64,000 nt of DNA from a bacterium (GTDB lineage: Bacteria; UBA10199; JACPAL01; GCA-016699445). Of the stretch, positions 15,134 through 61,830 are shown piece by piece. Numbering within the stretch: position 1 is the stretch's first letter; each line of letters begins with the position of its first letter. Location: assembly GCA_036274695.1 (NCBI GenBank), contig DASUFF010000030.1, forward strand, positions 2,510 through 66,509, written 5' to 3'. Both the position numbers and the translations under genes were made by a program. The notes under the pieces were generated by a model. It was not told the DNA's origin. It did not search any database and saw only the letters and a list, made by a program, of their open reading frames with translations.

Positions 15134-17086
<1,953 letters not shown>

Positions 17087-17098: not shown

Positions 17099-18076
17099 TT
17101 ACCGCCCGCCGCCCCTCGGCCGGCCCATCGGCGAGAAGGGGCTCGCGTTCTGGCCGCCCGCGGCCTTGAACTGGACGATCAGGATCGTCTCTCCCTCTTT
17201 GAGGCCCGAGACGATCTCTGTCCGCTTTCCGTCGTTCAATCCCGTCGTCACCGTCCGCTCCTCCGGCTTGCCGCGTCCCTGCTTCACCAGGACGATCGCC
17301 TTGCCCTCCCGCTTCTTGACCGCCTCCGAAGGAATCAAAAGGACGTCGGGCTTGGAATCGACCAGGAAATTCACGTTGGCCGTCATGCCGCTCCTTAAGA
17401 CCTCGGGCGGCAGGTCGGGGAGGACGTCGATGATGTAGGTGGTGACGTTGTTCACCGTCGTCGCGTCGTAGGCGATCTTGTCGACGTGGGCGGGAAATTC
17501 CTTTTGAGGGTAGGCGTCCAGCGTGATCTTGGCGTCCTGCTTCAGTTTGACCTGGGCGATGTCGGTCTCGTCCACCTGGGCCTTGACGGTCAGGCGGTCC
17601 GACATGACGAAGAGGGCGTCGGTGCCGGCGAAGGTCTGGCCCTGCTGGACGTTTTTCAAGATGATGGTGCCGTCGATGGGCGCCAGGACCGGCGTCGCAT
17701 TGTAGAACTCCTCCCAACGTTTCAACTCCGCCGGGCCGCGCGCGCGCGCGGCGTCGAGCAGGGCGGCGCGCTCGGTCGAACTCATCCAGCCCAGCACCTG
17801 GCCCCGCTTCACGGCGTCGCCTTCCTCGCTCAAGACTTGCTCCACGCGCCCGGCGATGGGCGGCTTGATCTCCAGCCGGTTCTCCGGCGCTACCGTGCCG
17901 GTGGCCAGGATGGTGACGTCGATCTGGCCGCGTTTGACGGAGACCTCGCGGTATGTGGGCGCCTGGTCCGATTTCTTTTTCCAGACGAAGACCGCGATCA
18001 GGACGAGGACGACGACGCTTCCGGCCACGGCCCACTTGACGGGGAATTTACGTTTCTTGCCGTTGGTGGTGTTCAT
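17099..18076 (-). CDS. macA: MacA/HlyD-family periplasmic adaptor (membrane fusion protein)
   Basis: It has an N-terminal TM anchor and lipoyl/beta-barrel blocks. It sits immediately upstream of macB. Confidence 0.8.
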   Translation of the reverse strand: MNTTNGKKRKFPVKWAVAGSVVVLVLIAVFVWKKKSDQAPTYREVSVKRGQIDVTILATGTVAPENRLEIKPPIAGRVEQVLSEEGDAVKRGQVLGWMSSTERAALLDAARARGPAELKRWEEFYNATPVLAPIDGTIILKNVQQGQTFAGTDALFVMSDRLTVKAQVDETDIAQVKLKQDAKITLDAYPQKEFPAHVDKIAYDATTVNNVTTYIIDVLPDLPPEVLRSGMTANVNFLVDSKPDVLLIPSEAVKKREGKAIVLVKQGRGKPEERTVTTGLNDGKRTEIVSGLKEGETILIVQFKAAGGQNASPFSPMGRPRGGGR

Positions 18077-19378
18077 TTAAGGTAGGACCCCCTTGCCTTG
18101 AGCCTGCTCCCACGCCGCCTCGGCGATGATGCGGTCGCGCCGGCTCTGCAACACGGCCTTTTCGCGGTTGATCAGGTCGTTCTCGATGATATCCCAGTCC
18201 TGGAAGGAGAGCAGGCCGTTGTTGTATTGCGCGCGCGCGATGTCGGCCCGGACGGTGGCCGCCTCCAGGAAGGATTGATCGGTCTTGAGCCTCTCCACTG
18301 ATTCCTCATAGGCCGTGTAGGCTTGCACCAGCGCGGAGCGCACCGCAGTTTCGGTGTCCGTTTGATTGAAGCGGGCCGCGGCATCCAGGGCCTTCGCGCT
18401 CTTCACGTTGTAGAAATCCCTCCCGCCGTTGAAGATCGGGATGGAGAGGTTGGCCCCCACCGACCAGGCGCCTTCGGTGGGGAAGAAGGAATCGTCCTGG
18501 GTGCCGACGGCGGCGTTGACGTTCAACGCGGGGAAGAAGGCCGAGCGCGCGGCGGTGATGGTTTCCTTGGCGAATTTCTTGCGGCTGACGGCGTCGCGGT
18601 AGTCCGGCGTGTCCCGCATCATCGCGTCCAGATCCGCCGGCGGCTTGGGGGAGGTGAGGGGAATGCCGCCCGCCACATGGAGGCCGTCTCCGGAATCGCG
18701 TCCCAGCGCCTTGGCCAATTGATGCTGCGCCGTCTTCACGTCGTCCTTGGCCTGGAGGCTCCCGAACTCCGCGTCCTTCAAGTTGGCCTGGGAGAGGAGC
18801 AGCGAGCCCTTGTTTTCCTGGCCGCTGTCGAAGCGGAGCTCCACCATGTCCTTGTTGTCCTTGCGGCGTTTGATGATTTCCCGGGCGAGCTTTTGGGAGG
18901 ACTGGGCGAATTGGAGGCCGGCGAAGGCCGATTTCAAATCGAAGCTGATCTTGGCGGCGGTGCCCTCCAAGGCCGCGGAGGCGATGCCTTCGTTGGCCTT
19001 GGCCTGGTTGACCCTGGCCTTGTCGGCGAAGCCGTTGAAGATGTTTTGGCTCGCCTGAAGGGACGAGGAAAAGGTGGAACGGTTATTACCGGTGGTGAAG
19101 GTCGACCCGGTAGGGACGATCGTCCCCGCCGCATTGAACGAATCGCTGTTGCTGTAGCCTAGATTGCCCGCGACCTGAGGAAAGAAATTACTGCGCGCCG
19201 ACTTGGTCAGGTAGCGGGACGACGAGACTCTCTCGCGCGATGAGTTCAACTCCGGATTCACTCGGGCGGCCTCCTCCACGCATTGCTTCCACGTCAACGT
19301 TTCGGCGCCCGCGGGGGCCGCGGAGAGGCCCGCCAGTCCCAGGGCGGCCAGAAACGAAAAAATGAGGGGGATTTTCAT
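18077..19378 (-). CDS. TolC-family outer membrane efflux protein
   Basis: It has a signal peptide and two repeated OMF halves. It sits immediately upstream of macA. Confidence 0.8.
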   Translation of the reverse strand: MKIPLIFSFLAALGLAGLSAAPAGAETLTWKQCVEEAARVNPELNSSRERVSSSRYLTKSARSNFFPQVAGNLGYSNSDSFNAAGTIVPTGSTFTTGNNRSTFSSSLQASQNIFNGFADKARVNQAKANEGIASAALEGTAAKISFDLKSAFAGLQFAQSSQKLAREIIKRRKDNKDMVELRFDSGQENKGSLLLSQANLKDAEFGSLQAKDDVKTAQHQLAKALGRDSGDGLHVAGGIPLTSPKPPADLDAMMRDTPDYRDAVSRKKFAKETITAARSAFFPALNVNAAVGTQDDSFFPTEGAWSVGANLSIPIFNGGRDFYNVKSAKALDAAARFNQTDTETAVRSALVQAYTAYEESVERLKTDQSFLEAATVRADIARAQYNNGLLSFQDWDIIENDLINREKAVLQSRRDRIIAEAAWEQAQGKGVLP

Positions 19379-19465: not shown

Positions 19466-20728
19466 ATGAAACATCTCGCCCGCGCCCTACGTCATCGAAA
19501 TTTCCGTCTTTTTTTCGCCGGCCAGTCGATTTCGCTCATCGGGACCTGGATGACCCAGGTGGCCACCGGCTGGCTGGTCTACCGGCTGAGTCGTTCGGCG
19601 TTCTGGCTGGGCGTTTCCGGATTTTCGGGGCAGATCCCGGTCTTCCTCTTTTCCGCCTTCGCCGGCGTTTGGGTGGACCGTCTGAACTTGAGGCGGGTGA
19701 TGATCGCCACCCAGGTCCTGGCGATGCTCCAATCGCTGACCCTGGCCTTTTTGACGCTGACCCACCGGATTACACTGGTCCAATTGATCGTCTTGGGCTT
19801 CGCGCAGGGTCTGATCAACGTCTTCGACATGCCGGCCCGCCAAGCCTTTGTGGTCCACATGGTTTCGGACAAGAAGGACCTGGGCAACGCCATCGCGCTC
19901 AACTCCTTCATGGTGAACGTGGCCCGACTGGTCGGTCCCACGCTCGCCGGAATACTGATCGCCGCCACGAACGAGGGGATGTGTTTTTTGGTAGATGGGT
20001 TGAGCTACGTCGCCGTGGTGGCGTCGCTGGTCCTGATGACGCTCTCCCTTCCGCGCAAGACCGGTCCGCACCCGGGCGTCTTCCATGAGTTGAAAGAGGG
20101 CGCTCGCTACGCCCTGGGTTTCCCGCCGATCCGTTACGTCTTGTTATTGCTGGCCGTCTTCAGCCTTATGGGCATGCCGCATGCGCTCCTGATGCCCGTC
20201 TTCGCCTCCGAGATCTTCCACGGCGACGCCCATGCGCTGGGCATGCTGTTGGGCGCCTCGGGTTTCGGGGCCATCTTAGGCGCCGTGTTCCTGGCCTCGA
20301 AGAAATCGGTACTGGGATTGGGCCGCATCATGGTGACGACGGGCATCCTTTTCGGCGCCGGCATCGTCTTGTTTTCGCTGTCCCATATCTGGTGGCTTTC
20401 ATTGTGCCTGCTTGCCGTCACGGGGCTTTCGCTCATCATGCTCGTCGCCTCCGCCAACACCTTCCTCCAGACCATCGCGGAGGACGCCAAGCGCGGCCGG
20501 TTGATGAGCCTGTTCACGATCGCCTTCATCGGCATGGCGCCCTTCGGCAGCCTCCTCTCGGGATGGATGGCCAAGAAGATCGGCGCACCGCACACGCTGC
20601 TGATCGAGGGCGTGTGCTGCATCGCCGGGGCGATCGCCTTCGCGAAGGTCATTCCGGCGATGCGGATTCACGTAAGGCCGATTTATCTGGAGAAGGGGAT
20701 CCTGCAGGCCGAGATTCCGCCGGCGTGA
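19466..20728 (+). CDS. MFS transporter (MFS_3/EntS-like, 12 TM)
   Basis: The N-terminus reads RNFRLFFAGQSISLIGTWM. It has 12 predicted TMs and motif A-like loops. Confidence 0.8.
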   Translation: MKHLARALRHRNFRLFFAGQSISLIGTWMTQVATGWLVYRLSRSAFWLGVSGFSGQIPVFLFSAFAGVWVDRLNLRRVMIATQVLAMLQSLTLAFLTLTHRITLVQLIVLGFAQGLINVFDMPARQAFVVHMVSDKKDLGNAIALNSFMVNVARLVGPTLAGILIAATNEGMCFLVDGLSYVAVVASLVLMTLSLPRKTGPHPGVFHELKEGARYALGFPPIRYVLLLLAVFSLMGMPHALLMPVFASEIFHGDAHALGMLLGASGFGAILGAVFLASKKSVLGLGRIMVTTGILFGAGIVLFSLSHIWWLSLCLLAVTGLSLIMLVASANTFLQTIAEDAKRGRLMSLFTIAFIGMAPFGSLLSGWMAKKIGAPHTLLIEGVCCIAGAIAFAKVIPAMRIHVRPIYLEKGILQAEIPPA

Positions 20729-20750
20729 CGGTCCTGGAGGCAAATAGTTC

Positions 20751-21062
20751 TTGGTTTTGCGCTCCCCGATGATAACATTTTTCCCGATGACGCCTTTCTC
20801 CCGTATCGTGAAGGCCGTGGCCCTGGCAACCCTCCTGGGGTTCTGCAGCATTTTGGCGGATCTTCATTTGGAGGAAACCTCTCCCCAGCAGGCCGATTCC
20901 TGCTGCATGACCTGTTGCCCGGCTCATCATTTGGCTCCGTCTCCCGTCGTCGTCTCCCAATTTAATGACGCCCCCCCGACGTGGCAGGACCTGCCCGTGA
21001 TTCGCTGCCTATCCGTCGATTTGACCCCGTCCGTCTTTCACCCGCCGCAAATCGTCTCCTAG
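20751..21062 (+). CDS. Small exported Cys/His-containing protein upstream of the RND genes; possible metal-binding accessory protein
   Basis: It has the signal-like segment AVALATLLGFCSILA, then CCMTCCPAHH. The start codon is uncertain. It ends 45 bp before the OMF gene. Confidence 0.35.
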   Translation: MVLRSPMITFFPMTPFSRIVKAVALATLLGFCSILADLHLEETSPQQADSCCMTCCPAHHLAPSPVVVSQFNDAPPTWQDLPVIRCLSVDLTPSVFHPPQIVS

Positions 21063-21107
21063 CTCCTTCCTTTCCGTTTTCAGCGTCACCGCTTTTTCGA
21101 CGGCCTC

Positions 21108-22385
21108 ATGCGTCCGCACGGGGCCAAGGAGCATTTTGTGAGACCGATTTTATTCGCCCTGGGGGCCCTGGGCCTCCTCTTGGGGACGTCTCCGGCGTTC
21201 GCCGAACCGTCTTCCTGCGGGATTCGCTCCGCTCAGGACATTTTGGATTGCGTCCTGACGCATCATCCCGACTTGGCCGTCTCCCAGGCCGCCGTGGAGC
21301 GCGACATCGAACTCGCCGCCGTCGCCCGGCAGCGTCCGAATCCGGAGCTGGAGAGCAAGATCCTCGCCGGGACGAGCTCCGCCGCGGACGATCTCGAAAC
21401 GGAGACCCGCCTTCTGCACACGGTGGAGTTGGGAGGAAAGAGGAAGGCGCGCCTTCGCGAGGCCAAGGCCTTCGGGGAGATCGCTGTCGCGGACCGCCAA
21501 AAAACGCGCGAAGAGGTCGCGCTGGCGACGGTCTTGGCCCTCCATCGCCTGCGCCAGATCCGGACGGAGCGCGCCTATCTCCGCGAATCGCTCGAGTCTT
21601 TTGGGCGCATCTTGGGTCAATTGAAGACGCGTCCTCTTCTTTCGCCGGAGCAATCGGTCTCGCAGTCCGTCTTCGAGATGGCGGCCGAAGAATACCGATT
21701 GAAAGAAACGACCCTGCTCGCGGAAGAGAACGGGCTGAAGAGTTCGCTGGAGCTGGCGACGGGGCTGCCCTTCGAATCTTTACAACGCCATCTCCCCGCC
21801 GCCAAGACCTCCTGGCCCAAAATCGGCGGCGACGGCGGCCCGGCCGCCGGCGCCGGCGATTTGCAAAAGGCGAAGGCCGAGACGGATCGGGCGTCGGCCG
21901 GGTTGGAGGCCGCCAAGAGCCTCTCCTGGCCGGATCTTAAAATAGGCCCCACGGTTCAGACCGCCAATCCCTCGGGCGCCGGCCGCACCGGAACCTCGGT
22001 CGGTGGTACGATTTCGCTGCCGATTCCGTTGTTGAGCGTGAACGGCGGCGGGCGCCGCTTTGCGGCCGCGGAGAAGGCGCGGGCGGAGCTGAACCTCCGC
22101 GCGACGAACGAGCGCCTGGCGAAGGAACGTCAAAAACAGGTCGAACGCTACCGAAGCGCCGTCAAAATTTTCTCCCAATTCCGTTCCCGCTCCGCGTTGG
22201 GTGCGAAACACAAGGCCGTCGACGACCTCTTCGAACGGGGCCTGGCCCCGAGCGCGCTCGTCTTGGAGAGCCATCGCCAGATGATCGAGATCATTCGATC
22301 GCTCGACGAACAGGAACTCGCCGCGTTGGACGCCCTCTGGCGCATCGCCATCCTGGACGGAAAGCTGACGGAGGCGAAATTATGA
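21108..22385 (+). CDS. CzcC-like outer membrane efflux protein (OMF) of an HME-RND system
   Basis: It has a signal peptide, the OMF start block LTHHPDLAVSQAAVE...RPNPELE, and a second repeat. It overlaps the RND gene by 4 bp. Confidence 0.7.
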   Translation: MRPHGAKEHFVRPILFALGALGLLLGTSPAFAEPSSCGIRSAQDILDCVLTHHPDLAVSQAAVERDIELAAVARQRPNPELESKILAGTSSAADDLETETRLLHTVELGGKRKARLREAKAFGEIAVADRQKTREEVALATVLALHRLRQIRTERAYLRESLESFGRILGQLKTRPLLSPEQSVSQSVFEMAAEEYRLKETTLLAEENGLKSSLELATGLPFESLQRHLPAAKTSWPKIGGDGGPAAGAGDLQKAKAETDRASAGLEAAKSLSWPDLKIGPTVQTANPSGAGRTGTSVGGTISLPIPLLSVNGGGRRFAAAEKARAELNLRATNERLAKERQKQVERYRSAVKIFSQFRSRSALGAKHKAVDDLFERGLAPSALVLESHRQMIEIIRSLDEQELAALDALWRIAILDGKLTEAKL

Positions 22386-25300
22386 TCCAAAAAATCATCC
22401 GATTTTCCGTCTACAACCGGGCCGTCGTCCTGGTCTTGACAGGGCTTCTCGCGGCCGCCGGGTGGATGGCCTTCCGGACGCTTTCCATCGACGCGCTTCC
22501 GGACATCACCAACGTCCAGGTCGCCGTCAACACGAGGGTGGACGGCCTGGCCCCCGAGGAGACGGAACGCACCATCACCGCCCGCGTCGAGTCCGTGATG
22601 AACGGAATCCCCGGCGTCGCGAACGTCCGCTCCCTCACCAAGTTCGGGCTTTCGCAGGTGACGGTGAATTTCGAGGACGGCACGGACATCTACCGCGCCC
22701 GGCAGCAGGTGTCGGAACGCCTCCAGTCGGTGGCGCCGGACCTTCCGGAAGGAGCGCGTCCGCATCTGGGGCCGATCACGACGGGACTGGGCGAAATCTT
22801 CTTCTACACAGTGGAGGCGGACGCGCCGGCTTCGGGCGAGGAGCGCGTGGCGCAGCTCATGGACCTGCGCGCCGTCCAGGAATGGACGGTCCGCCCGCGG
22901 CTCATGACGGTGAAGGGCGTGGCGGGCGTCGATACGACGGGCGGCTACGAGAAGCAGTACCACGTCCAGCCGGACGTGAAGAAAATGGCGGAATACGGCC
23001 TGGGCTTCGACGAGATCGAGGCCGCCTTGGAGAAGGCCAACCGGAACGTCGGCGGCGGCTACGTCCAGCAGGACGGAAAGATGTTCTTGGTCCAGGCGCT
23101 CGGACTTTTCCGTTCGGAAGAGGACATCCGGCGGGTCCCCGTGAAGTCCCTCGAAACCTTGAAGACGGTCGTGGTCGGCGACGTGGCGAAGGTGTCGCCG
23201 GGCTATCCTCTGCGCGTCGGCGCGGCGCTGGTCGACGGCCACGAGGCGGTCTTGGGCATGGTCTATCTCCTTTCGGGGGAAAACAGCCGGATCGTCGCCA
23301 AGGAGGTGGCTCAGAAGGCGGAGGAGGTGAGGAAGATCCTCCCTCCCGGCGTGCGCCTCGAGGTTCTGCACGACCGCTCGGAGCTGGTCGACGCCACCTT
23401 GAACACCGTCCTGCACAATCTGGCGACGGGGGCGGCCTTAGTCGTCGTTATATTGCTCCTGCTCGTGGGGAACCTCCGCGCGGCCCTCATCACCGCCGTC
23501 ATCATTCCGCTCTCGCTCCTCTTCACCTTCCTCCTCATGAAGGGAAGGGGGATATCCGGCAACCTCATGAGCCTGGGCGCCCTCGATTTCGGCATCATCG
23601 TAGACGCGGCGGTGATCGTGGTGGAGAACTGCGTCCGCCGGATTCATGAATACTGCGGGCGTCTGGGAAGAAGTCTCACCTCGGAGGAGTTGAAGGAAGC
23701 GGTGACGGACGCCACCGTCGAGATGCGCCGGGCCTCCGGTTTCGGGGAAATCGTCATTCTGGCCGTCTTCTTGCCCATTTTCGCGCTCACCGGCGTCGAA
23801 GGAAAAATGTTCCACCCCATGGCGGCGGCCTTTTGCTTCGCGCTGCTCGGCGCCTTGATCTTTTCGTTCACCACGGCCCCGGCGCTGGCGTCCCTGTTTC
23901 TCACGGGAAAAATGGTCGAAAGAGAGCCGTGGCTGATGCGTCTCTTCAGCCGGCTTTACGCGCCGGCCTTGCGCTATGCGATGAAGCGGAGGGGGGTCGC
24001 CCTGGGCGTCGCCGTCGCATCCGTCCTCCTCGGGACCGTCCTCTTCTCCCGCCTGGGCGCGGAGTTCCTGCCGCAATTGGACGAAGGCTCGATCGTCGTC
24101 ATGTTCAACCGGGACGTGAACATCGGGATCGACCAAGCGGTGTCGTTGCAGGCGCGTTCCGAAAAAATCATCCGCGGGTTCCCGGAGATCCGAAAAGTGT
24201 TTTCCCGCATCGGAACGGCCGAGGCCGCCACCGATCCAATGGGCATCTATCTTACGGACACGTTTGTCATGTTAAAAGACCGGAGCGCGTGGCCCGAGAT
24301 CGACGGGCACCGCCGCACGAAGGAGGAGCTTGCGGAGGCGATCGTCGAACGGGTCGAAAAGGAAATCCCGGATCAGGGCCCGGTGATTTCACAGCCGATC
24401 CAGATGCGTTTCAACGAGCTTCTCGAAGGCACGCGCGCCGACGTGGCGGTGAAGATCTTCGACGACGACCTGTCGCGCCTTCTGGCGTTTTCCCAAAAGG
24501 CCGAGGAGCTTCTGAAGGATTTGCCCGGCGCGGGCGACGTCGAGGCGGAGCTTTCGGACACCTCCAAGGTCCTGCGCATCGCCCCTTACGAAGACCGGCT
24601 GGCGGCCTTCGGCATCGGCGCGTCGGTCGTCTTGGACGCGGTCAGCACCGGCGTCGGCGGAAAGGAAGCGGGCTTTCTCTACGACGGCGTCCGCCGTTTT
24701 CCCATCCTCATCCGATTGAGTGAGAAAGACCGGTCGGACCTACAGACGCTCAAAAGCCTCCCCGTCGAGGTGGGGTCGAACCTGACGATCAAGCTGGGCG
24801 AACTCGCGCATCTCGAGTTCGTCGACGGCTTCGGAACGATCCTCCGGGAGAACGGCAAGAGACGGGCCGCCATCCTCATCAATCCGCGCGGCCGCGACAC
24901 CGAGAGTTTCGTCGACGAGGCCCGTGCGGTCTTGGAGAGCCGGGTGCCGCTTCCCGTCGGGTCGTACTACGAATGGGGCGGCAATTTCAAAAACCTGGAG
25001 CGCGCCAAGGAGCGTCTCTTGATTTTGGCGCCGGCGGTGCTGGTCTTGGTTTTCCTGATGATCTTTTTCGTCTTTAGGAATCTTTTTCAGACCTTTTTGA
25101 TTTTCAGCGGCGTCCCCCTGGCCCTGGTGGGGGGCGTGCTGGCGCTGAAGTTAAACGGCCTGACGTTCAGCCTCTCGGCGGGCATCGGCTTCATCGCCCT
25201 CTCGGGCATCGCGATCCTGAACGGGGTCGTGCTGATCAGTTATTTCAACCAACTGAAAGCGGGCCGGGGATTGTCCGGGAGGGAATTGATCTTCAAAGGG

Positions 25301-25522
25301 TCGATGCTGCGGCTCCGGCCCGTCCTCATGACCGCCTTGGTCGACATTTTCGGTTTCCTGCCGATGATGCTCTCCCACGGCATGGGGGCGGAGGTTCAGA
25401 AACCGCTGGCGACGGTGGTGATCGGCGGGATCATCTCATCGACCCTTCTGACCTTATTGGTTTTGCCTGTCCTCTACGAATGGAGGGAAGAAAAAAATGA
25501 CAACTCCCTTCGCAAGCCTTAA
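22382..25522 (+). CDS. czcA: CzcA/CusA-family heavy-metal RND efflux pump (12 TM)
   Basis: The 1046-aa protein starts MIQKIIRFSVYNRAVVLVL, which matches the HME-RND N-terminus. It has two large periplasmic loops and the 12-TM layout. Confidence 0.85.
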   Translation: MIQKIIRFSVYNRAVVLVLTGLLAAAGWMAFRTLSIDALPDITNVQVAVNTRVDGLAPEETERTITARVESVMNGIPGVANVRSLTKFGLSQVTVNFEDGTDIYRARQQVSERLQSVAPDLPEGARPHLGPITTGLGEIFFYTVEADAPASGEERVAQLMDLRAVQEWTVRPRLMTVKGVAGVDTTGGYEKQYHVQPDVKKMAEYGLGFDEIEAALEKANRNVGGGYVQQDGKMFLVQALGLFRSEEDIRRVPVKSLETLKTVVVGDVAKVSPGYPLRVGAALVDGHEAVLGMVYLLSGENSRIVAKEVAQKAEEVRKILPPGVRLEVLHDRSELVDATLNTVLHNLATGAALVVVILLLLVGNLRAALITAVIIPLSLLFTFLLMKGRGISGNLMSLGALDFGIIVDAAVIVVENCVRRIHEYCGRLGRSLTSEELKEAVTDATVEMRRASGFGEIVILAVFLPIFALTGVEGKMFHPMAAAFCFALLGALIFSFTTAPALASLFLTGKMVEREPWLMRLFSRLYAPALRYAMKRRGVALGVAVASVLLGTVLFSRLGAEFLPQLDEGSIVVMFNRDVNIGIDQAVSLQARSEKIIRGFPEIRKVFSRIGTAEAATDPMGIYLTDTFVMLKDRSAWPEIDGHRRTKEELAEAIVERVEKEIPDQGPVISQPIQMRFNELLEGTRADVAVKIFDDDLSRLLAFSQKAEELLKDLPGAGDVEAELSDTSKVLRIAPYEDRLAAFGIGASVVLDAVSTGVGGKEAGFLYDGVRRFPILIRLSEKDRSDLQTLKSLPVEVGSNLTIKLGELAHLEFVDGFGTILRENGKRRAAILINPRGRDTESFVDEARAVLESRVPLPVGSYYEWGGNFKNLERAKERLLILAPAVLVLVFLMIFFVFRNLFQTFLIFSGVPLALVGGVLALKLNGLTFSLSAGIGFIALSGIAILNGVVLISYFNQLKAGRGLSGRELIFKGSMLRLRPVLMTALVDIFGFLPMMLSHGMGAEVQKPLATVVIGGIISSTLLTLLVLPVLYEWREEKNDNSLRKP

Positions 25523-25565
25523 ACTCCGTTCCTCAGCCGACAAACCTTTAAGAAAGGGGAAATTC

Positions 25566-25766
25566 ATGTTCACGAGAATCAAAACCGCCAACGGAAACGT
25601 TGTTCTAAACGCCGGCAGGATCATCGCCATCGCCGATAAGGGCGAGCAAAAATACGAGATCACCGTCGATCAAGGCTCTTCGGTCGGCTCTTACATCACG
25701 GACCGAGAATCGGCGAACAACCTGCTGCAGGAAGTGGAAGCGAGCTTCGAGTTCGGCGGAAGATAA
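25566..25766 (+). CDS. Small cytoplasmic hypothetical protein (66 aa)
   Basis: An ORF immediately downstream of czcA, followed by a terminator-like hairpin and T-run. It has no recognisable motif. Confidence 0.35.
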   Translation: MFTRIKTANGNVVLNAGRIIAIADKGEQKYEITVDQGSSVGSYITDRESANNLLQEVEASFEFGGR

Positions 25767-25768
25767 GG

Positions 25769-25815
25769 CGCGCCCGCTTCAATTTCCCCATTCTCTTTTT
25801 CGGGCGTTTTTTTCC
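25769..25815 (+). terminator. Putative intrinsic terminator
   Basis: CGCCCG...CGGGCG stem followed by TTTTTTT. Confidence 0.4.
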
Positions 25816-25831
25816 GGCAAATGACAGCAAC

Positions 25832-26788
25832 TTGTGGCCCGGCGCCTCGATACGACCCTCCGCTATGGCGCTGACATCCCCGCTTCTTTGTTTGCCGGCG
25901 ACGACTTTCTCCCCGCAGGGCGTCGGCTTTCCCGGCGCGTCTTACGAGCCGCTGTCGCAGATGATCGTTTCCGCTTCCAAGGACGACGACGGTCCCTCAA
26001 TCGGCGGGGCACCGACGACGCCGCGGGAATCGGCTCTCGTTGCCGGGGAAAGGGAGACGGAAGCAAGTTCCCGGTCGACTTATTTGGGCCGCAGAGCGGC
26101 GGTGGCGCGTCTCAGCTCCGTTTATGTGTCCCGCGGCAGGGCGGGAGACGCCGCAAACCTCGCCTTGAAATGGGCCGTCATGGGGAGTTTGGCTTATTTC
26201 CTCCCTTCGCCTTGGGGCTGGCTCGCCGCGGCGGCGGCCATGGGCGCGATGGCGGTTTTCAACACGGCTCGCTTGGGCGCCTATTTTAGTACCGCACCGA
26301 AAAGTCCCAGGCGCTACGAGGCCAAGTATGGCGTGTTGATGAGGCGGATCGATTTTTCCTGGAAAGAGATGGTTCGATATTCCCGCGACGGGACCGCCCC
26401 TCTCTACGAGCGGCAACGGCAGTATCGGGAACTTTTGGCGGAAATTCGCTCGACGATGACGGAACTGGAAGCGTTGAGTTTGTCCAATCCGGGGCGCGTA
26501 ATGGCCCGCGGAAGCGTCACCGGGATCTACCTGATGCTGACGACGCCCTGGAAGGATGAGGGTTTGCGCCATCGGTACGAGCGCGAGTCCCTGGTGCGCT
26601 CCTGCAGGCGGTTCGTGAATTCCCTGCCCGGGGAGTTGCCGGTCCTGCCTCCGGAATCCGAGGAGGCGGGAAGCTATCGCGAATTGCCCGCCCGACTTCG
26701 CGTGGAGGTTCCGGAGGAATTTTCCGATTTCGAAGACGAACTGGCCGAGATCGAGGATGAGCGCGAGGAGAAAAAAGGGCGCTCATAA
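25832..26788 (+). CDS. Hypothetical protein with one hydrophobic segment and an acidic C-terminal tail
   Basis: It has coding-like third-position GC. The start is uncertain (alternatives at 25865 and 25963). Confidence 0.4.
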   Translation: MWPGASIRPSAMALTSPLLCLPATTFSPQGVGFPGASYEPLSQMIVSASKDDDGPSIGGAPTTPRESALVAGERETEASSRSTYLGRRAAVARLSSVYVSRGRAGDAANLALKWAVMGSLAYFLPSPWGWLAAAAAMGAMAVFNTARLGAYFSTAPKSPRRYEAKYGVLMRRIDFSWKEMVRYSRDGTAPLYERQRQYRELLAEIRSTMTELEALSLSNPGRVMARGSVTGIYLMLTTPWKDEGLRHRYERESLVRSCRRFVNSLPGELPVLPPESEEAGSYRELPARLRVEVPEEFSDFEDELAEIEDEREEKKGRS

Positions 26789-26813
26789 GACAGACCGCTT
26801 CATTTTCATTTTG

Positions 26814-26886
26814 TGCGCCCGGTAGGAATCGAACCTACGACCCACAGCTTAGAAGGCTGTTGCTCTATCCCCTGAGCTACGGGCGC
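26814..26886 (-). tRNA. tRNA-Arg (anticodon TCT)
   Basis: The minus-strand sequence is GCGCCCGTAGCTCAGGGGATAGAGCAACAGCCTTCTAAGCTGTGGGTCGTAGGTTCGATTCCTACCGGGCGCA. The cloverleaf is canonical and the anticodon loop is CTTCTAA. Confidence 0.9.
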
Positions 26887-26962
26887 TAACCAGCAACCCC
26901 CTACGTTACACTTCGGGGGCGATTACGCTTCGCTTCATCGAAAATCCAAAGCCAGCGCCCTG

Positions 26963-27015
26963 TCCTAATGGCTTCGCCATTAGGGCGGGCGGCTTCAAGC
27001 GGCCTTCGGCCGCTT
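26963..27015. promoter_or_regulatory. Twin GC-rich stem-loops with TTC loops between tRNA-Arg and ndh
   Basis: CCTAATGGC-TTC-GCCATTAGG at 26963..26983 and CAAGCGGCC-TTC-GGCCGCTTG at 26995..27015. Both have perfect 9-bp stems. Confidence 0.5.
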
Positions 27016-27083
27016 GAGCGCGAAGTTAAAGGTAAAACCCCCTTATTTCAATCAAAAGGAAATACGCGTATAGGCTTTAGCCA

Positions 27084-28367
27084 ATGAGCCATCCCCAAGA
27101 TAACGCGCGCCATCGTGTGGTTCTTCTGGGCGGCGGCTTCGGCGGCCTCTACGCCGCCCAATCGATCCCAAGCGACTCCCCGATTGAGGTGACCCTCATC
27201 GACAAGCGCAACTTCCATCTCTTTCAACCTCTTCTCTATCAAGTCGCCACCGGAGGCCTCAGCCCCGGCGACATCGCTTCGCCCCTCCGCGCGATCCTGG
27301 CCAAGCGCAAGAACGTGACGGTCCTCCAAGTCGAGGCCATCGACCTCGATATTGCCGGCAATCAGGTTGTTCTGAAAGACGGCGCCGTTCCTTACGACAC
27401 GCTGATCATCGCCACCGGCGCCAGCCACCATTACTTCGGCCACGACGACTGGGCCGCCCACGCCCCGGGCCTGAAGACCGTCGAAGACGCCCTGGCGATC
27501 CGCCAGAAAATATTTTCCGCCTTCGAAAAGGCCGAGCGCGAGACGAATGAAGAGAATCGTCGCGCCTTGCTCACCTTCCTCCTGATCGGCGGGGGACCCA
27601 CGGGCGTGGAGATGGCGGGGGCGCTGGCGGAACTGGCGCACGACACGCTCAAGGGCGAGTTCAAGCGCATCGATCCGACGTGGGCGCGGATCGTCCTGAT
27701 CGAAGGCGTCGACCGCATCCTGCCGCCGTATCCGGAAAAGCTGTCGGAAAAGGCGCGCGCGTCGCTGGAAAAATTGGGCGTCGAGGTCCGCACCGGAACG
27801 TTGGTGACGGAGGTCCGCGACGGCGCCGTCACGATGAAACGGGGCGAGGAGACGGAGACCATCGAAGCGGCGACGATCTTTTGGGCCGCGGGCGTTCAAG
27901 CCTCGCCCGTGGGAAAGATTCTGGCGGCCAAGACCGGCGCGTCGCTCGACCGCGCGGGACGGGTCTTGGTGGAAAAAGATCTCACCGTCCCCGGTCATCC
28001 CGAAATTTTCGTGATCGGCGATCTGGCGAATTTTTCCCATCAGGGCGGCAAGCCCTTGCCGGGCATCGCCCCCGTCGCGATGCAGCAGGGGAGGTACGTC
28101 GCGGATCTGGTTCAACGCCGGATCAACGGCGCTCCGCAATGGCCGTTCGTCTATCAAGACAAAGGCAGCCTGGCCGTCATCGGCCGGAATGCGGCGGTGG
28201 CCGATTTGGGAAATCTCCGATTCAGCGGCTTCCCCGCGTGGCTCCTCTGGGTCTTCGTCCACATCCGCTACTTGATCGAGTTCGACAACAAGGCCTTGGT
28301 GCTCTTCCAATGGGCCTGGAATTACCTCACCCGCAAGCGCGGGGCGCGGCTGATCACCAATGAATAG
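27084..28367 (+). CDS. ndh: Type II NADH dehydrogenase (NDH-2)
   Basis: It has two FAD/NAD Rossmann motifs, VVLLGGGFGGLYAA and LIGGGPTGVEMAGAL. The C-terminal membrane-anchor region is conserved. Confidence 0.85.
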   Translation: MSHPQDNARHRVVLLGGGFGGLYAAQSIPSDSPIEVTLIDKRNFHLFQPLLYQVATGGLSPGDIASPLRAILAKRKNVTVLQVEAIDLDIAGNQVVLKDGAVPYDTLIIATGASHHYFGHDDWAAHAPGLKTVEDALAIRQKIFSAFEKAERETNEENRRALLTFLLIGGGPTGVEMAGALAELAHDTLKGEFKRIDPTWARIVLIEGVDRILPPYPEKLSEKARASLEKLGVEVRTGTLVTEVRDGAVTMKRGEETETIEAATIFWAAGVQASPVGKILAAKTGASLDRAGRVLVEKDLTVPGHPEIFVIGDLANFSHQGGKPLPGIAPVAMQQGRYVADLVQRRINGAPQWPFVYQDKGSLAVIGRNAAVADLGNLRFSGFPAWLLWVFVHIRYLIEFDNKALVLFQWAWNYLTRKRGARLITNE

Positions 28368-51596: not shown

Positions 51597-52255
51597 GTCC
51601 CGTTGCCGACGTTCACCTTATGGTATTTTTTCAGGGCCGCCGCGCTTTCGAGGATATTGTGGGCGGCGCGTTGGGCGGGGTCGTAAAAGTCCACCACCAA
51701 GTCCCAACCTGCCGGCCGGTATTTTCGCTCCAATTGCTGAACGAAAAAGTGACGTAAGGCGTAGGTGTCTTGGAGCCAGGATAGATTTTCATCCAATCCA
51801 AGGACGTTGATGCGGGAATCGTGATTTTCGTTGGAACCGAAGATTTTTTTCCAGCGGGTCACGCGGTCAAAGACGTTTTGCCGGGCTTGGCGGATTTGCC
51901 AAAGGTCATCCGCGGCGCGGCGTCCCATTTCCCCGGTTTCGCCGCTCAACCAGGCCGCTTTCTTGATCCAGAAATAGGTGTTCAGGGAGGGACCGTCTTT
52001 GCGGGAGACCTCGCTTTCCACGTTGGCCGGATCGAATCCCAAGGCCTTCAAAAGAGGCCCTTCTTTTTGCCTCATCCGCTCCAGATATTGGAGGGCACGC
52101 TCGGACGGAAGGAGGGGCGGGGTGGCGCTCGTCCTGCGGGAGGGCTCCGGCGGGGTCAGGGGCGAGAGCGTGATCTCGACGATCTGGAAGGATCCCCAGG
52201 CCAGGACATGGTTCAAGAGCTGCGTCTGCGCCGTGCTTAAACTCGCCGTCACCAT
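51593..52255 (-). CDS. Hypothetical protein, convergent with cysA
   Basis: A coding-like ORF. The start is uncertain (alternative at MRQKEG). No motif was recognised. Confidence 0.4.
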   Translation of the reverse strand: MVTASLSTAQTQLLNHVLAWGSFQIVEITLSPLTPPEPSRRTSATPPLLPSERALQYLERMRQKEGPLLKALGFDPANVESEVSRKDGPSLNTYFWIKKAAWLSGETGEMGRRAADDLWQIRQARQNVFDRVTRWKKIFGSNENHDSRINVLGLDENLSWLQDTYALRHFFVQQLERKYRPAGWDLVVDFYDPAQRAAHNILESAAALKKYHKVNVGNGT

Positions 52256-52364
52256 AAAGATGCGGCTAGGATCGTAATAAACTCCAAACGGTTGCGGGCT
52301 TTTACCGGGGCGCCCCGGAAAATCATAATGGACGAGGTTTGGCGCGATTTGTTAAGGAGGCGCT

Positions 52365-52934
52365 ATGGCACGCATCCTTATGATCGAACCGACGCCCAAC
52401 CCCATGGCCTTCAAGCTCCGCTTGGACCAGAAGGTCGCCGTCGGCGGCAGCAAGCAATACAACAAGAAGGAAGAATGCTGGGACATGCCCGTGGCCGGAA
52501 AGCTTTTCGACGTTCACGGCGTCGAATCCGTCTTCCTGATGGACGATTTCATCACGGTGACCAAGACCGTCGGCGGCATTTGGGACTACATCTTCTTCCA
52601 GGCCAACGAGATCCTGATGGCGGCCAAGGACATTGTGGCCATCAGAGTCGGGGAAGGCGGCGAGTTCAAGAATCTGGACTCGGATGAGTTCGACAAGCTG
52701 CCCAGCGACCAAAAACTTTCCTACATCGACCGCGTGATCGACGAGACCATCCGTCCGGGCCTGGCGCGCGACGGCGGCAATCTGAAGATTCTCGGCTTGG
52801 AAGAAAACATCCTGCGCGTCCAGTACCAGGGCGCCTGCGGCAGTTGCCCGAGCTCGACGGGCGCGACGCTGAATTACATTTCCAACATGCTTCAGAGCCG
52901 GGTGAGCCCGAATATCCAAGTCATTCCCGGATAA
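52365..52934 (+). CDS. Nfu/NifU-like Fe-S cluster scaffold (Nfu_N plus NifU C-terminal domain)
   Basis: It has a C-terminal CGSCPSS CxxC motif. The N-terminal Nfu domain is MIEPTPNPMAFKL. Confidence 0.75.
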   Translation: MARILMIEPTPNPMAFKLRLDQKVAVGGSKQYNKKEECWDMPVAGKLFDVHGVESVFLMDDFITVTKTVGGIWDYIFFQANEILMAAKDIVAIRVGEGGEFKNLDSDEFDKLPSDQKLSYIDRVIDETIRPGLARDGGNLKILGLEENILRVQYQGACGSCPSSTGATLNYISNMLQSRVSPNIQVIPG

Positions 52935-52942
52935 TTCCTTCC

Positions 52943-53554
52943 ATGACCAAGAAAGAAGCCTCGACCAAAGAGAAGATCCTGCTCGCGGCGGAAGATGAAT
53001 TCGCCGAGCAAGGCTTCGCCGGCGCGCGCACGCAGGAAATCGCCCGCAAGGCGCAGGTCAACAAGGCCCTCATCCATTACTATTATAAGGATAAGTCCTC
53101 CCTCTATCAGGCGGTGATGGATGAAATGATGTACGACCTGATCCGCATCAGCCAGGACGTGGCCAAGCGGAAGCTTACGGGCAAGGCGTTGGTGGAGGCC
53201 CTCGTTTCCGACTTTTTTGATTTCGCCGCGCGCCATCCGCATTTCGCCAAGCTCACCACCGCCGGTTCGACTATGGGGGATGCGAAGTATCTGGAGACCA
53301 GCATCAAGAACCTTTTTCGTCCGCTCTTTCAGCGTGGCGTCGAGTTTTTGGAAGAACACATGGAGAAGGGGGCGATCCGGAAGGTGGATGCGCCCCAGTT
53401 TCTCGTGTCGGCCTTGCTCCTGACGCTTTCTTACTTCGCCATGCAGCCGATGATCTCGCTGCTCTTAGGTAAGGATGCTGCCTCCAAAACAGCCTTGGAA
53501 CAGCGAAAGAAGTCGGTTCTGGATTTTGTCTTCGCTACGTTGGGGGTCCAATAA
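52943..53554 (+). CDS. TetR-family transcriptional regulator
   Basis: The HTH reads EKILLAAEDEFAEQGFAGARTQEIARKAQVNKALIHYYYKDK. Confidence 0.75.
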   Translation: MTKKEASTKEKILLAAEDEFAEQGFAGARTQEIARKAQVNKALIHYYYKDKSSLYQAVMDEMMYDLIRISQDVAKRKLTGKALVEALVSDFFDFAARHPHFAKLTTAGSTMGDAKYLETSIKNLFRPLFQRGVEFLEEHMEKGAIRKVDAPQFLVSALLLTLSYFAMQPMISLLLGKDAASKTALEQRKKSVLDFVFATLGVQ

Positions 53555-53578
53555 GGCCCATGTATGTTTAAGACATTG

Positions 53579-53962
53579 CTAGCCATGTAGTTTAACAGCC
53601 CCTATCGCAGCGACTTTCTGAAAAATCTGATCTCGCGTCAGCAAATACCCCTCTAAGTCTCGCGCGCACTGCGCGATGTGCGCATCCGGAATCGACATGG
53701 AAATTCCGTGACTCGCCGCTTGATGCCGCAGCCTTCCCACTGCGATCCAATGTTCCTCCGGCGTCGCGTGAAGCGGCAGCTCATGCAGGAATTCGGCAAG
53801 TTGCTTCTCTTCGTTTTTATTGTGAACCCCGCTGATCAACTCCGCCAGAACGATGGGAGAGAGGACAACCCGTCCTTCTTTTAGGGCGAGCTCCAGTTCA
53901 GGAAAGCTCTGCCCCCGAAAGAAATCGATCCAAACGGAGGTATCAACGAGGAGTACGTTCAC
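53579..53962 (-). CDS. vapC: PIN-domain toxin VapC
   Basis: The PIN N-terminus VLLVDTSVWIDFF is present with conserved acidic residues. Confidence 0.75.
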   Translation of the reverse strand: MNVLLVDTSVWIDFFRGQSFPELELALKEGRVVLSPIVLAELISGVHNKNEEKQLAEFLHELPLHATPEEHWIAVGRLRHQAASHGISMSIPDAHIAQCARDLEGYLLTRDQIFQKVAAIGAVKLHG

Positions 53963-54167
53963 GGAGGGTGTCGATGTCCAAGTCGAGATTGAGGCGACCC
54001 TTCAGGGCCATTCCTTTTTCGTAAGCCCGGCTGCGGCGGATCAGTTGAAGGCCCTGGATGAGAGTCTCGGTAATCCCTTGTCCCGTGGCCTCCAAGGCCT
54101 CTTCCAGAAGGTCTTCCGGGAGATTGGCGGTGATACGCCGAGCAGGATTTTTAATGTTTTTCGTCAT
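53943..54167 (-). CDS. vapB: VapB-type antitoxin
   Basis: It is about 74 aa and overlaps the vapC start by 20 bp. The N-terminus is small and helical, MTKNIKNPARRITANLPEDLLEEAL. Confidence 0.6.
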   Translation of the reverse strand: MTKNIKNPARRITANLPEDLLEEALEATGQGITETLIQGLQLIRRSRAYEKGMALKGRLNLDLDIDTLRERTPR

Positions 54168-54228
54168 GATAACTATACTAACAATGATATGTATCGTCGT
54201 CAATACGGCTCAGGATGCTAAGAATTAT

Positions 54229-54272
54229 CTTAACCGCTTGGATTAACCACTCAGATTAACCAAATAGTTAAC
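54229..54272. repeat. Tandem 13-bp repeat (ATTAACCnnnnnG, three copies plus a partial fourth) in the promoter region of the activase operon
   Basis: cTTAACCgcttgg / ATTAACCactcag / ATTAACCaaatag / TTAAC, then TTTTTT. Confidence 0.7.
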
Positions 54273-54357
54273 TTTTTTCTTGCCCCCCACGGGTATCCTG
54301 TGCCAATTTCCGTTCAATCTTAACCAACCAGTTAATCAACGAAATAGGGGGATTTTC

Positions 54358-56103
54358 ATGGAACCCACTCAGATCCAATCCGTTGACGAGATCATCCAGC
54401 AGCGTTTGGCCGAAAAGCGGAACGCCTTGATGGCCGAGGCGGGCTTGAAAAAGCCGGTGCATCACTTCGAGCGTCCCAAGGAAAACCCCTTCCTGAAATC
54501 CCAGCGCGGAACGACGAAGGTCCTCTTCGGCGGCCTCACGTGGAAACACGAAAAGCTGATCCAGGCCGCGTGGGAAGGCTTGGGCTACATCGCCGAACCG
54601 GTTGAAGTGCCGGACGTGAAGGCCTTCCAGTTGGGTAAGGAGTACGGCAACAACGGCCAGTGCAACCCGACCTACTTCACCGTCGGCAACCTCGTACAGC
54701 ATCTCCAAAAGCTGGAAGAGAAGGGGATGAGCAAGCAGGAGATCATCGACAAGCACATCTTCATCACAGCCGGGGCCTGCGGCCCTTGTCGGTTCGGCAT
54801 GTACGAGGCTGAGTATCGGCTCGCTCTCCGCAACTCCGGCTTCGACGGCTTCCGCGTCATCCTCTTCCAGCAGTCCGGCGGCTTGAACCAGTCCGACGCC
54901 GAGCAGGGCCTGGACATGAACCTCGATTTCTTCCTCGGCATCTTAAACGCCATGAACATGGGCGACCTGATCAACGACATCGCCTACCAGATCCGTCCCT
55001 ACGAGGTGACCAAGGGCGAGACCGACCGCGTCCTCGGCGAATGCATGGATTACCTGTTCGGCGTGATGAAGAACCACAAGCCGTTCAAGCTGGAAGGCAA
55101 GATCGCGAAGTTCCTGCGCGCGCTGCCCAGCGCGGCCTCGACCACGGAATACGTCGGTAAGTTCCTCTCGCAGCTTTTGGGCGACGAGTACGTGAAGGCT
55201 TTCGCGGAGGTCGGTCGCCGTTTCAACGCCATCGAGATCGACCGCACGCGCGCCAAGCCCATCGTCAAGATCACAGGCGAGTTCTGGGCCCAGACCACCG
55301 AGGGCGACGGCAACTTCAACATGTTCCCCTTCTTGGAAAAGGAAGGCGCCCAGGTTCTGGTGGAGCCGATCGGGACATGGATCATGTATATGATCCATCA
55401 GGTCGTCCAAAAATATAAGGACCAGAAGGGGCTCGAAGACGGGGCGACGTTGCCGTCCTGGAGCAAGTTCGGAAAGCGCCTGTCGATCGAGTCGAATTAC
55501 CGCAAGAAGGTGGCGAAGTTGAAAGTGGCCGAACGCATCTTCGAGCGCGAATGGAACCGCCTGCGCGGGGCCCTCGGAAACATGCCGCACGCGCTCGCCA
55601 ACCAGTACGAACTCCAGCGCGAAGGGCATCCGTATTACAACAGCCGCGCCGGCGGCGGCGAAGGCCACTTGGAAGTCGCTAAGAACATCTACTACTCGCA
55701 CAAGGACCTGGCCCACATGGTGTTGTCGGTCAAACCCTTCGGTTGTATGCCGTCCACCCAGTCGGACGGCGCGCAGGCCGCGGTCGTGTCTCAATATAAA
55801 GACATGATCTATCTGCCCATCGAGACCTCCGGTGAAGGCGCCGTCAACGCGCACAGCCGCGTGCAGATGGCCTTGGGCGAGGCCAAGTTCAAGTGCAAGG
55901 CCGAGTTCGCCGACGCGGTGAAGTCGACGGGCTATACGCTCCCCGAAATCCAGGAATACATCCAGGCTCATGCCGAGCTGAAGACGCCATTTTATCATGT
56001 GCCGCATTACAAGGGCATCGTGGGCGTGGCTGCGAGTTTCGTGAAGCACGTCGGCGAGCGGATGGCGAAGGACGGCGTGAAGGCGCAGGCGAAGGCGGCG
56101 TAA
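54358..56103 (+). CDS. Acyl-CoA dehydratase/activase-related protein (DUF2229/HgdB-like component, no ATPase domain)
   Basis: It is 581 aa. It carries the Cys-containing blocks FITAGACGPCRFGMYE and VKPFGCMPSTQSDGA. It is co-oriented with, and 70 bp upstream of, the fused activase gene. Confidence 0.6.
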   Translation: MEPTQIQSVDEIIQQRLAEKRNALMAEAGLKKPVHHFERPKENPFLKSQRGTTKVLFGGLTWKHEKLIQAAWEGLGYIAEPVEVPDVKAFQLGKEYGNNGQCNPTYFTVGNLVQHLQKLEEKGMSKQEIIDKHIFITAGACGPCRFGMYEAEYRLALRNSGFDGFRVILFQQSGGLNQSDAEQGLDMNLDFFLGILNAMNMGDLINDIAYQIRPYEVTKGETDRVLGECMDYLFGVMKNHKPFKLEGKIAKFLRALPSAASTTEYVGKFLSQLLGDEYVKAFAEVGRRFNAIEIDRTRAKPIVKITGEFWAQTTEGDGNFNMFPFLEKEGAQVLVEPIGTWIMYMIHQVVQKYKDQKGLEDGATLPSWSKFGKRLSIESNYRKKVAKLKVAERIFEREWNRLRGALGNMPHALANQYELQREGHPYYNSRAGGGEGHLEVAKNIYYSHKDLAHMVLSVKPFGCMPSTQSDGAQAAVVSQYKDMIYLPIETSGEGAVNAHSRVQMALGEAKFKCKAEFADAVKSTGYTLPEIQEYIQAHAELKTPFYHVPHYKGIVGVAASFVKHVGERMAKDGVKAQAKAA

Positions 56104-56172
56104 ATCCACCGCCCCCAACCCCCTCCTTAATAAGGAGGGGGATCAAAGGGGGAGGTAACGCGGAGACACACG

Positions 56173-59655: not shown

Positions 59656-59661
59656 AAAAAC

Positions 59662-59699
59662 ATAGGTCCTATGGGGCCTATACGACTTATAGGACTTAT
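59662..59699. repeat. Degenerate copy of a 38-bp palindromic element
   Basis: CATAGGTCCTATGGGGCCTATACGACTTATAGGACTTAT. The right half matches the perfect copy at 60144..60181 with one mismatch. Confidence 0.6.
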
Positions 59700-60524: not shown

Positions 60525-60628
60525 GCCGAACTAGCACAATCGGTGCCAATAAAATCGAGCTTGGCGATTCGCCAAAAAGACCGAAATTCTGGATTCCAAA
60601 GTACGAATTTTAGACCTATGTCTGGGGC

Positions 60629-60955: not shown

Positions 60956-61091
60956 TTTTAACCCATCCCCGTTGCCCGGGATTCCGCAACCCATTCCTAA
61001 AGATTTGATTTTAAAAGAAAAGCTCTAGGGACCTTCGAAGGTCCGGTTGGCATGTCCGTTGCTTTCCTCCAAAGACAACAAGGAGAACGAC

Positions 61092-61790: not shown

Positions 61791-61830
61791 TCGGATTGCA
61801 TTTCGCCCTCCCCCGCACTAATCGGGGGGC

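Follow-up and report, generated by a model that had tools for sequence, protein, structure and literature searches.

A CzcA-like RND transporter operon with an outer membrane factor gene and no adaptor gene

Current models of tripartite efflux in Gram-negative bacteria hold that a hexameric periplasmic adaptor, or membrane fusion protein (MFP), is indispensable, since it bridges the resistance-nodulation-division (RND) transporter to the TolC-type channel and opens that channel. Among the heavy-metal efflux (HME) members of the RND superfamily (TC 2.A.6.1), CzcCBA, ZneCAB and CusCFBA have CzcB, ZneB and CusB in this position. The nearest precedent for reduction of the adaptor is BesABC of Borrelia burgdorferi, whose hairpin-less adaptor BesA was called "fully incompatible" with tip-to-tip models and compatible with direct contact of the RND transporter with the outer membrane factor (OMF) (PMC4446572). 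Here we analysed positions 20,751–25,766 of a 64,000-nucleotide stretch (the window) of contig DASUFF010000030.1 (assembly GCA_036274695.1), from a bacterium of the UBA10199 lineage. The locus is an intact operon of three open reading frames (ORFs), leader–OMF–RND, and unlike the three metal pumps it has no adaptor gene. The reading that we favour, with a probability of about 0.5, is that it encodes a metal-induced two-component OMF–RND pump that exports divalent cations and whose OMF needs no adaptor for coupling, direct docking being the simplest way; the mode of coupling is the weakest step of this reading.

The OMF–RND pair and the search for an adaptor

The RND protein scored 1183 bits against TIGR00914, the CusA/CzcA family model (cut-off 701), over model positions 1–1040 of 1051, and 912 bits against Pfam ACR_tran, with a full-length architecture of 12 transmembrane (TM) helices. 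The nearest solved structures, as best PDB matches, were ZneA (4k0e, 627 bits) and CusA (561 bits). TM4 reads DFGIIVDAAVIVVEN (residues 402–416) and contains the Asp-Asp-Glu motif D-x5-D-x6-E of metal-transporting RNDs. In addition, residue 409, directly after the second Asp, is Ala in place of Gly, so that the motif DFG-DAA-VEN is a hybrid of the CzcA form (DFG-DGA-VEN) and the CusA form (AIG-DAA-IEN); three related loci (L004, L006 and L009) share it. Judged by these profile matches and motifs, the protein is a bona fide CusA/CzcA-family HME-RND transporter, in agreement with the original prediction of a CzcA-like pump.

The 425-residue product of the preceding gene passed the Pfam OEP model in two stretches (54 bits, cut-off 22). 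The AlphaFold model, for which 64 homologues were used, reached a pLDDT of 92.4 and contains four beta strands as well as long helices, the longest of 63 residues; in a Foldseek search it aligned over its full length with TolC, OprN, SilC, CusC and OprM (TM-score 0.6–0.69, 12–17% identity). The OEP match and the full-length matches to TolC, OprN, SilC and CusC identify the modelled protein as a TolC-fold OMF and not an MFP, the alternative identity under which the predicted organisation would have fallen. The protein differs from the solved OMFs in its low identity to them, in the absence of a lipobox, in an invariant cysteine pair (Cys37/Cys48) and in the lack of a match to the NCBIfam TolC, NodT and CusC models, where the only hit was a 24-bit partial match to IhpA (cut-off 650); by sequence it is therefore placed in a divergent OMF lineage. 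The database contained 66 homologues besides the window's own protein. A signal peptide was recognised, with cleavage between AFA and EP, and some of the positions that are invariant or nearly so (R175, P180, E181, Q182 and G378) lie close to the predicted helix turns. The start annotated by NCBI, a GTG at 21138 located 8 nt past AAGGAG, would give a product of 415 residues and is likely the true one.

The stop codon of the OMF gene and the start codon of the RND gene share four nucleotides, ATGA (...AAA TTA TGA in one frame, ATG ATC in the other), so the predicted 4-bp overlap can be read directly in the sequence. The RND ATG is preceded by GGAGG, 8 nt upstream, and the overlap couples translation of the RND gene to that of the OMF gene. 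Because of this overlap there is no room for an MFP gene between the two genes.

The locus was searched for an adaptor with two profiles. The first, built with jackhmmer from a CzcB-like MFP as seed, recovered both CzcB-like and MacA-like adaptors; it was used instead of phmmer with MacA alone, which retrieved almost no MFPs in the loci. Applied to all window ORFs of at least 60 residues, it matched only MacA (17099–18076, minus strand), in keeping with the claim that this is the window's only adaptor gene. The second was a hidden Markov model (HMM) of the small adaptor-like protein found in related operons (the mini protein, described below), which gave no match in the six frames of the whole window. 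Moreover, the flanking small ORFs had no MFP match in Pfam or NCBIfam, and no MFP was annotated in about 8 kb past the right end of the window, as read in a near-identical contig. The hairpin, lipoyl, beta-barrel and membrane-proximal MFP whose co-operonic gene defines czcCBA and cusCBA is thus absent from the operon, and the locus contains no MFP or MFP remnant. A short or frameshifted MFP gene overlooked at first inspection, which had been named as the finding that would overturn the prediction, was looked for by both profiles and none was found.

Related operons and their reduced adaptor

A scan of one genome per species with a 15-sequence OMF alignment yielded 60 loci, and context look-ups added more (L001–L067). 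They came from Bdellovibrionota (Bdellovibrio, Bacteriovoracaceae and Oligoflexia), from metagenome-assembled genomes (MAGs) of the "Deltaproteobacteria"/UBA10199 type, from one MAG labelled Myxococcota and from Elusimicrobia. The RND gene lies 3′ of the OMF gene in every locus in which both are co-oriented; in L064 it lies upstream, on the opposite strand. The adaptor-less layout of the window was also found in eight distinct loci (L004, L006, L009, L010, L012, L013, L014 and L066), with gaps of 16–103 nt between the two genes, and the remaining loci contain in this gap an ORF of 125–226 codons. The mini HMM matched every complete locus with such an ORF at E ≤ 1e-27, with weaker matches only in L041, which is cut by a contig end. 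In a six-frame scan that covered L004–L006, L009, L010 and L012–L014 (without L066) the same HMM had no match. Since the direct juxtaposition of OMF and RND genes recurs in eight other loci, the layout in the window is not a matter of chance or an assembly oddity. The suggestion that the organisation is simply unusual was accordingly supported, and the comparison of mini genes together with the RND tree specifies it as the final stage of a reduction of the adaptor that runs through the whole family.

In about 50 related HME-RND operons the gap ORF is annotated as "hypothetical protein"; the window has no such ORF. Its product begins with a hydrophobic helix, which is followed by a variable linker rich in His, Asp and Glu and by some 100 residues that make up a conserved domain; the tails are of a metal-binding type and frequently end in GHSH, GHGH or SCAH. 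A Pfam scan of 26 mini proteins and four database homologues returned no meaningful family, and the family is unnamed in Pfam and NCBIfam; a sequence-profile search of the PDB gave two sub-threshold matches, both of them MFPs. The relationship was established by hhalign and fold comparison: the mini profile aligned to the C-terminal membrane-proximal domain of canonical MFPs with a probability of 84.5% and an E value of 6.9e-6, and the mini protein is homologous to the MFPs. It is an MFP reduced to its transporter-binding membrane-proximal domain, without the beta-barrel, lipoyl and hairpin domains. In solved pumps the bridge to the OMF is built from beta-barrel, lipoyl and alpha-hairpin domains (PMC4403515, PMC4446572). 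Because the mini protein has no bridge-forming domain, its domain content indicates that the whole family would be without an operon-encoded adaptor able to reach the OMF. The mini protein is perhaps an accessory for metal delivery or activation. Furthermore, the OMF and RND proteins of the family loci are equally long with or without a mini gene, and because both lengths are ordinary no adaptor domain is fused to either protein.

Conservation of the RND protein was assessed with a set of 229 residues that are identical in 44 mini-bearing relatives. The adaptor-less RNDs, which are 61–86% identical to one another within their clade, retained 89–95% of these residues (213 of 229 in the window), compared with 50% in canonical RNDs from the same loci, and on this sequence evidence the adaptor-less operons are judged not to be decaying. 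The RNDs of mini-bearing operons show the canonical DFG-DGA-VEN in TM4. About 19 of the 27 clade-specific substitutions are periplasmic, as against roughly 55–60% of conserved sites overall, and this enrichment was not convincing.

Neighbour-joining trees were calculated with 50 bootstraps for the RND and 100 for the OMF. In the RND tree the adaptor-less loci, including the window, formed one clade nested within the mini-bearing family (50/50 bootstraps). In the OMF tree the adaptor-less OMFs were monophyletic in none of the 100 bootstraps and were interleaved with those of mini-bearing operons, with adaptor-less L066 next to mini-bearing L067 (88/100) and adaptor-less L009 next to mini-bearing L001 (84/100). 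The discordant trees cover the genes of the window, L001, L004, L006–L010, L012–L014, L066 and L067. Taken at face value, this sequence-based discordance suggests that OMF modules or RND modules, the latter with the mini gene where present, have been exchanged between operons. On that reading, independence from the adaptor would travel with the RND gene, and close OMFs would work with or without the mini protein. Since sister OMFs serve operons with and without it, the mini protein is probably not the factor that brings in the OMF.

In the relatives the RND gene is often followed by a P-II-like gene, a cation diffusion facilitator (CDF) transporter or a P-type ATPase, and these downstream genes support a role in metal efflux. 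A P-II-family protein of 112–113 residues is encoded directly 3′ of the RND gene in many relatives (91 bits against Pfam P-II in L009), often with a CDF transporter or P-type ATPase gene next in line, and is absent from the window. In L038, L054 and L056 the gap holds 3-kb inserts that encode a second OMF of OEP-like type, along with ORFs lacking a Pfam match; the inserts were checked for a hidden full-length MFP and none was found. In such operons, of Bacteriovoracaceae and other Bdellovibrionota, the second OEP-like protein has 410–540 residues and stands in tandem with the OMF, and the ORFs that lack a Pfam match have 190–220 codons.

A putative leader peptide and the proposed mode of coupling

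The first ORF of the operon encodes a 91-residue protein identical to the NCBI hypothetical protein P0160. It has a signal peptide or hydrophobic N-terminus, a CCMTCCPAHH cluster (CCMTCC at residues 39–44) and a C-terminus ending in FHPPQIVS, with the Pro-Pro pair at residues 86–87 of 91; the OMF gene begins 45–75 nt 3′ of it. No match was found in Pfam (E ≤ 0.01, DUF2946 included) or NCBIfam. A small ORF lies directly 5′ of the OMF gene in 43 related loci, and although the mutual identity of the products is low, they share a signal peptide, a Cys/His cluster, a median distance of 40 residues from the cluster to the Pro-Pro pair (36–47 in almost all) and a stop codon 2–5 residues past that pair. 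The cluster is of the HCCVQCCPxHNL type in the window's relatives and takes the form CxNCHLGHC in Bdellovibrio. This family was defined from synteny; a word-indexed database search with the leader found only the protein itself, and an exhaustive search found eight relatives besides itself. The features of the leader agree with the sequence rules that define CutF-like proteins (PMC9973294), and its sequence suggests an exported leader peptide of the CutF-like, metal-sensing kind that belongs to the operon. The original prediction had described a small exported Cys/His protein that was merely a neighbour of the pump; the description stands, whereas the role of bystander does not, given a conserved leader in 43 loci.

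A hairpin was predicted at the junction between the leader and the OMF gene. Its 5′ arm runs from the last four codons of the leader through the stop codon to GCUCCUU, and its 3′ arm comprises the AAGGAGC Shine-Dalgarno sequence (21126–21132) and the GUG start of the OMF (21138). The fold of 21030–21150 had an energy of −36.1 kcal/mol (z = −2.45), and one of 200 dinucleotide shuffles was as stable. Hairpins hiding the ribosome-binding site were also predicted in L029, L014, L008 and L003. No Rfam family, riboswitch or leader was detected in 20400–27100. In the CutF system, binding of metal to the nascent exported peptide prolongs the pause at a proline motif, and the paused ribosome unfolds a hairpin that masks the ribosome-binding site of the next gene (PMC9973294). 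By analogy, the exported Cys-rich leader would control expression in cis: metal bound in the periplasm by the nascent leader would prolong a pause at the C-terminal Pro-Pro motif, and the paused ribosome would melt the hairpin and expose the ribosome-binding site of the OMF gene.

For the pump itself we propose that, throughout the family, no adaptor with a hairpin takes part in bringing the OMF to the RND, the simplest route being that the OMF trimer docks directly on the docking domain of the RND, and that the mini protein is an accessory that the RND lineage of the window would have made dispensable. The more specific statement, that a TolC-fold channel stands directly on the HME-RND trimer as the end point of adaptor reduction across Bdellovibrionota, UBA10199-like lineages and Elusimicrobia, by way of a metal-binding stub of the membrane-proximal domain, is put forward only tentatively.

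Several observations weigh against this proposal. Physical contact between OMF and RND is argued from comparative genomics and structure prediction, and neither protein displays an obvious extension that would compensate for the missing adaptor: the RND docking domain has no insertion relative to ZneA, and the OMF helices are of TolC-like length. The substrate is most likely a heavy metal in the form of a divalent cation, a specificity read from sequence motifs and neighbouring genes. The leader hairpin is only moderately better than shuffled sequences and is not evident in all loci. All members come from MAGs, save one match for the mini protein in a Bacteriovorax isolate. One genome, MAG_483, carries both the adaptor-less L006 and the mini-bearing L008, and there a mini protein could act in trans. 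Finally, in L010 (CP064976.1, a closed genome) the RND is split into 992 and 75 residues by a frameshift at L010:11100-11260, beside T5 and G4 homopolymers; this is probably a homopolymer error of long-read assembly, and possibly a sign of a pseudogene or decay.

The chief rival, which we do not favour and regard as rather unlikely, is a normal tripartite pump whose full-length adaptor is encoded elsewhere, as an orphan CzcB-like MFP or as one shared with another system, such as MacA. The adaptor search covered 64 kb of the genome, which leaves room for an adaptor in trans, and in current structural models an adaptor hexamer has to sit between OMF and RND (PMC4403515). Candidates for sharing lie close by, in the form of a canonical MFP–RND pair directly 5′ in L010 and of MacA at 3 kb in the window; however, the neighbourhood is not conserved, no MFP was found within up to ±7 kb in L004, L006, L009, L012, L014 and L066, and the membrane-proximal domains of MacA-type adaptors are matched to MacB. 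Adaptors are normally co-operonic and transporter-specific. Moreover, about 50 relatives keep an RND-binding stub in the position of the MFP, and this is difficult to square with another adaptor, of full length, on the same RND surface.

A distinctly less probable rival, compared with the adaptor in trans, is that there is no sealed conduit at all: the RND would move metal from the cytoplasm or inner membrane to the periplasm, and the OMF would be a separate exit or the partner of another system. With no adaptor to seal the junction, with OMF genes swapped between operon types, which points to loose partner specificity, and with two OMF paralogues in one operon in some relatives, such an arrangement is conceivable, but OMF and RND genes are strictly adjacent and translationally coupled in about 60 loci across several phyla, and some of the strongest conservation in the OMF family falls close to the predicted helix turns, as would be expected of a conserved interface with another protein. 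At rest, TolC-type channels are shut, and a partner is normally needed to open them. Strict synteny, translational coupling and conservation render this rival less likely, and for the same reasons the earlier notion that the adaptor was lost and the two remaining genes are a decaying, non-functional remnant is contradicted and most improbable: the canonical third component is indeed missing and the L010 frameshift lies near the RND C-terminus, but nine loci share the layout, the window and seven of the eight other loci have both ORFs intact although identity falls as low as 61% (RND) and 44% (OMF), the 89–95% of family-invariant RND residues that are kept include the TM4 Asp-Asp-Glu motif, the RND branches appear about as long as those of mini-bearing relatives, and the leader ORF and motifs are retained.

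Gene neighbourhood and comparison with known systems

The features of the locus, of its surroundings and of the related loci are collected in the table. Pfam and NCBIfam scans bore out the predicted neighbours, a minus-strand TolC–MacA–MacB operon and an MFS_3 exporter; the TolC–MacA–MacB operon is complete and oriented divergently from the MFS_3/EntS-like exporter, and this neighbourhood is not syntenic with the other adaptor-less loci. None of the 67 related loci contained a homologue of the 66-residue ORF 3′ of the RND gene, which also had no Pfam or NCBIfam match and no signal peptide; its status as a gene is uncertain, it probably does not belong to the system, and it was rejected as a part of it for want of homologues in the related loci. 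The 318-residue ORF was likewise rejected, with no Pfam or NCBIfam match and no synteny; its product is rich in Ala, Arg and Glu and has a possible pair of TM helices. A tRNA gene follows, and tRNA genes are frequent integration sites. Elsewhere in the window, positions 52000–62000 have a G+C content of 0.57–0.59, compared with 0.60–0.66 in the rest, with a strongly positive AT skew at about 56–60 kb, and may be a foreign segment.

Table. Coordinates of the operon, its neighbours in the window and selected features of related loci (prefixed by locus).
Feature	Position	Strand	Evidence or remark
Leader ORF (91 aa)	20787..21062	+	Likely ATG start; frame open from TTG 20751
Predicted mRNA hairpin	21049..21150	+	RNA fold
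OMF, TolC fold, 425 aa (ATG 21108) or 415 aa (GTG 21138)	21108..22385	+	Pfam OEP, AlphaFold, Foldseek
HME-RND inner-membrane transporter, 1046 aa	22382..25522	+	TIGR00914, Pfam ACR_tran
Small ORF, 66 aa, MFTRIKTANGNVV...	25497/25567-25766	+	Open reading frame only
318-aa ORF, between efflux operon and tRNA gene	25832-26788	+	Open reading frame
tRNA-Arg(TCT) gene, ~1.3 kb 3′ of RND gene	26813-26886	-	
MacB	15134-17086	-	Pfam/NCBIfam scan
MacA	17099-18076	-	Pfam/NCBIfam scan; MFP profile match
TolC	18077-19378	-	Pfam/NCBIfam scan
MFS_3/EntS-like exporter, ends 58 nt 5′ of leader ORF	19466-20728	+	
Mini genes (examples)	L003:9221-9643, L001:9263-9883		
P-II-family ORFs	L001:13048-13389, L009:11384-11725, L010:11389-11727, L066:6527-6868, L067:6031-6372		
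Second, very divergent OEP-like proteins	L038:6995-8236, L054:8889-10142, L056:8796-10094		Weak OEP match (L038, L054 scanned)
Upstream ORFs, candidate second OEP-like proteins	L061:1616-2857, L063:5714-6946, L015:5401-7002, L016:5357-6979		

The finding is of real interest to efflux-pump specialists, on a basis that is entirely comparative genomics and structure prediction. A literature search for adaptor-less or MFP-stub OMF–RND operons and for czc systems of Bdellovibrio returned nothing relevant in the searchable library. If the proposal is true, the "direct docking" architecture that was given up in the case of AcrAB-TolC does occur in nature, and recruitment and opening of the OMF do not in all cases depend on adaptor hairpins. 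If functional as encoded, the pair would be a two-protein system in which to ask whether an RND docks to and opens an OMF directly; the minimal role of the membrane-proximal domain, in metal hand-over or activation as opposed to bridging, would also become addressable, as would the envelope geometry of small predatory and uncultured bacteria as a constraint on pump architecture. In annotation, it would be wrong to mark such operons as incomplete czc systems, and the "hypothetical protein" mini genes can be named.

The leader resembles CutF, CopL and CruR (DUF2946 type) in its size of less than 150 residues, its signal peptide and a Cys motif located about 40 residues before a Pro-Pro pair at the extreme C-terminus. 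It differs from them in having CCxxCC/HCCVQCC or CxNCHLGHC in place of a plain CxxxC, in the lack of a DUF2946 match and in the gene that follows, since CutF regulates a multicopper oxidase and the leader here precedes an OMF–RND pump. CzcI of C. metallidurans, encoded upstream of czcCBA, has no proline motif (PMC9973294). A CutF-like leader in this position would bring RND efflux operons into the range of genes whose translation is tuned to metal by nascent exported peptides.

Like CzcCBA, ZneCAB and CusCFBA, the operon in the window combines a CusA/CzcA-family RND with the TM4 Asp-Asp-Glu motif and a co-operonic TolC-fold OMF, and its relatives share with those systems a metal-homeostasis context of CDF and P-type ATPase genes. 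RND-superfamily transporters that function without an MFP are known in MmpL, HpnN and SecDF; these belong to other RND families and have no OMF partner, whereas the HME-RND of the window is translationally coupled to an OMF gene. BesABC is a multidrug pump of the hydrophobe/amphiphile efflux (HAE) type, whereas the pump described here belongs to the HME type. BesA lacks only the hairpin and retains the lipoyl, beta-barrel and membrane-proximal domains; the relatives of the window retain only the membrane-proximal domain, and the clade of the window retains nothing. With about 50 operons at the former stage and a clade of at least nine members at the latter, and with OMF and RND intact, reduction of the adaptor has been taken much further here than in BesA.

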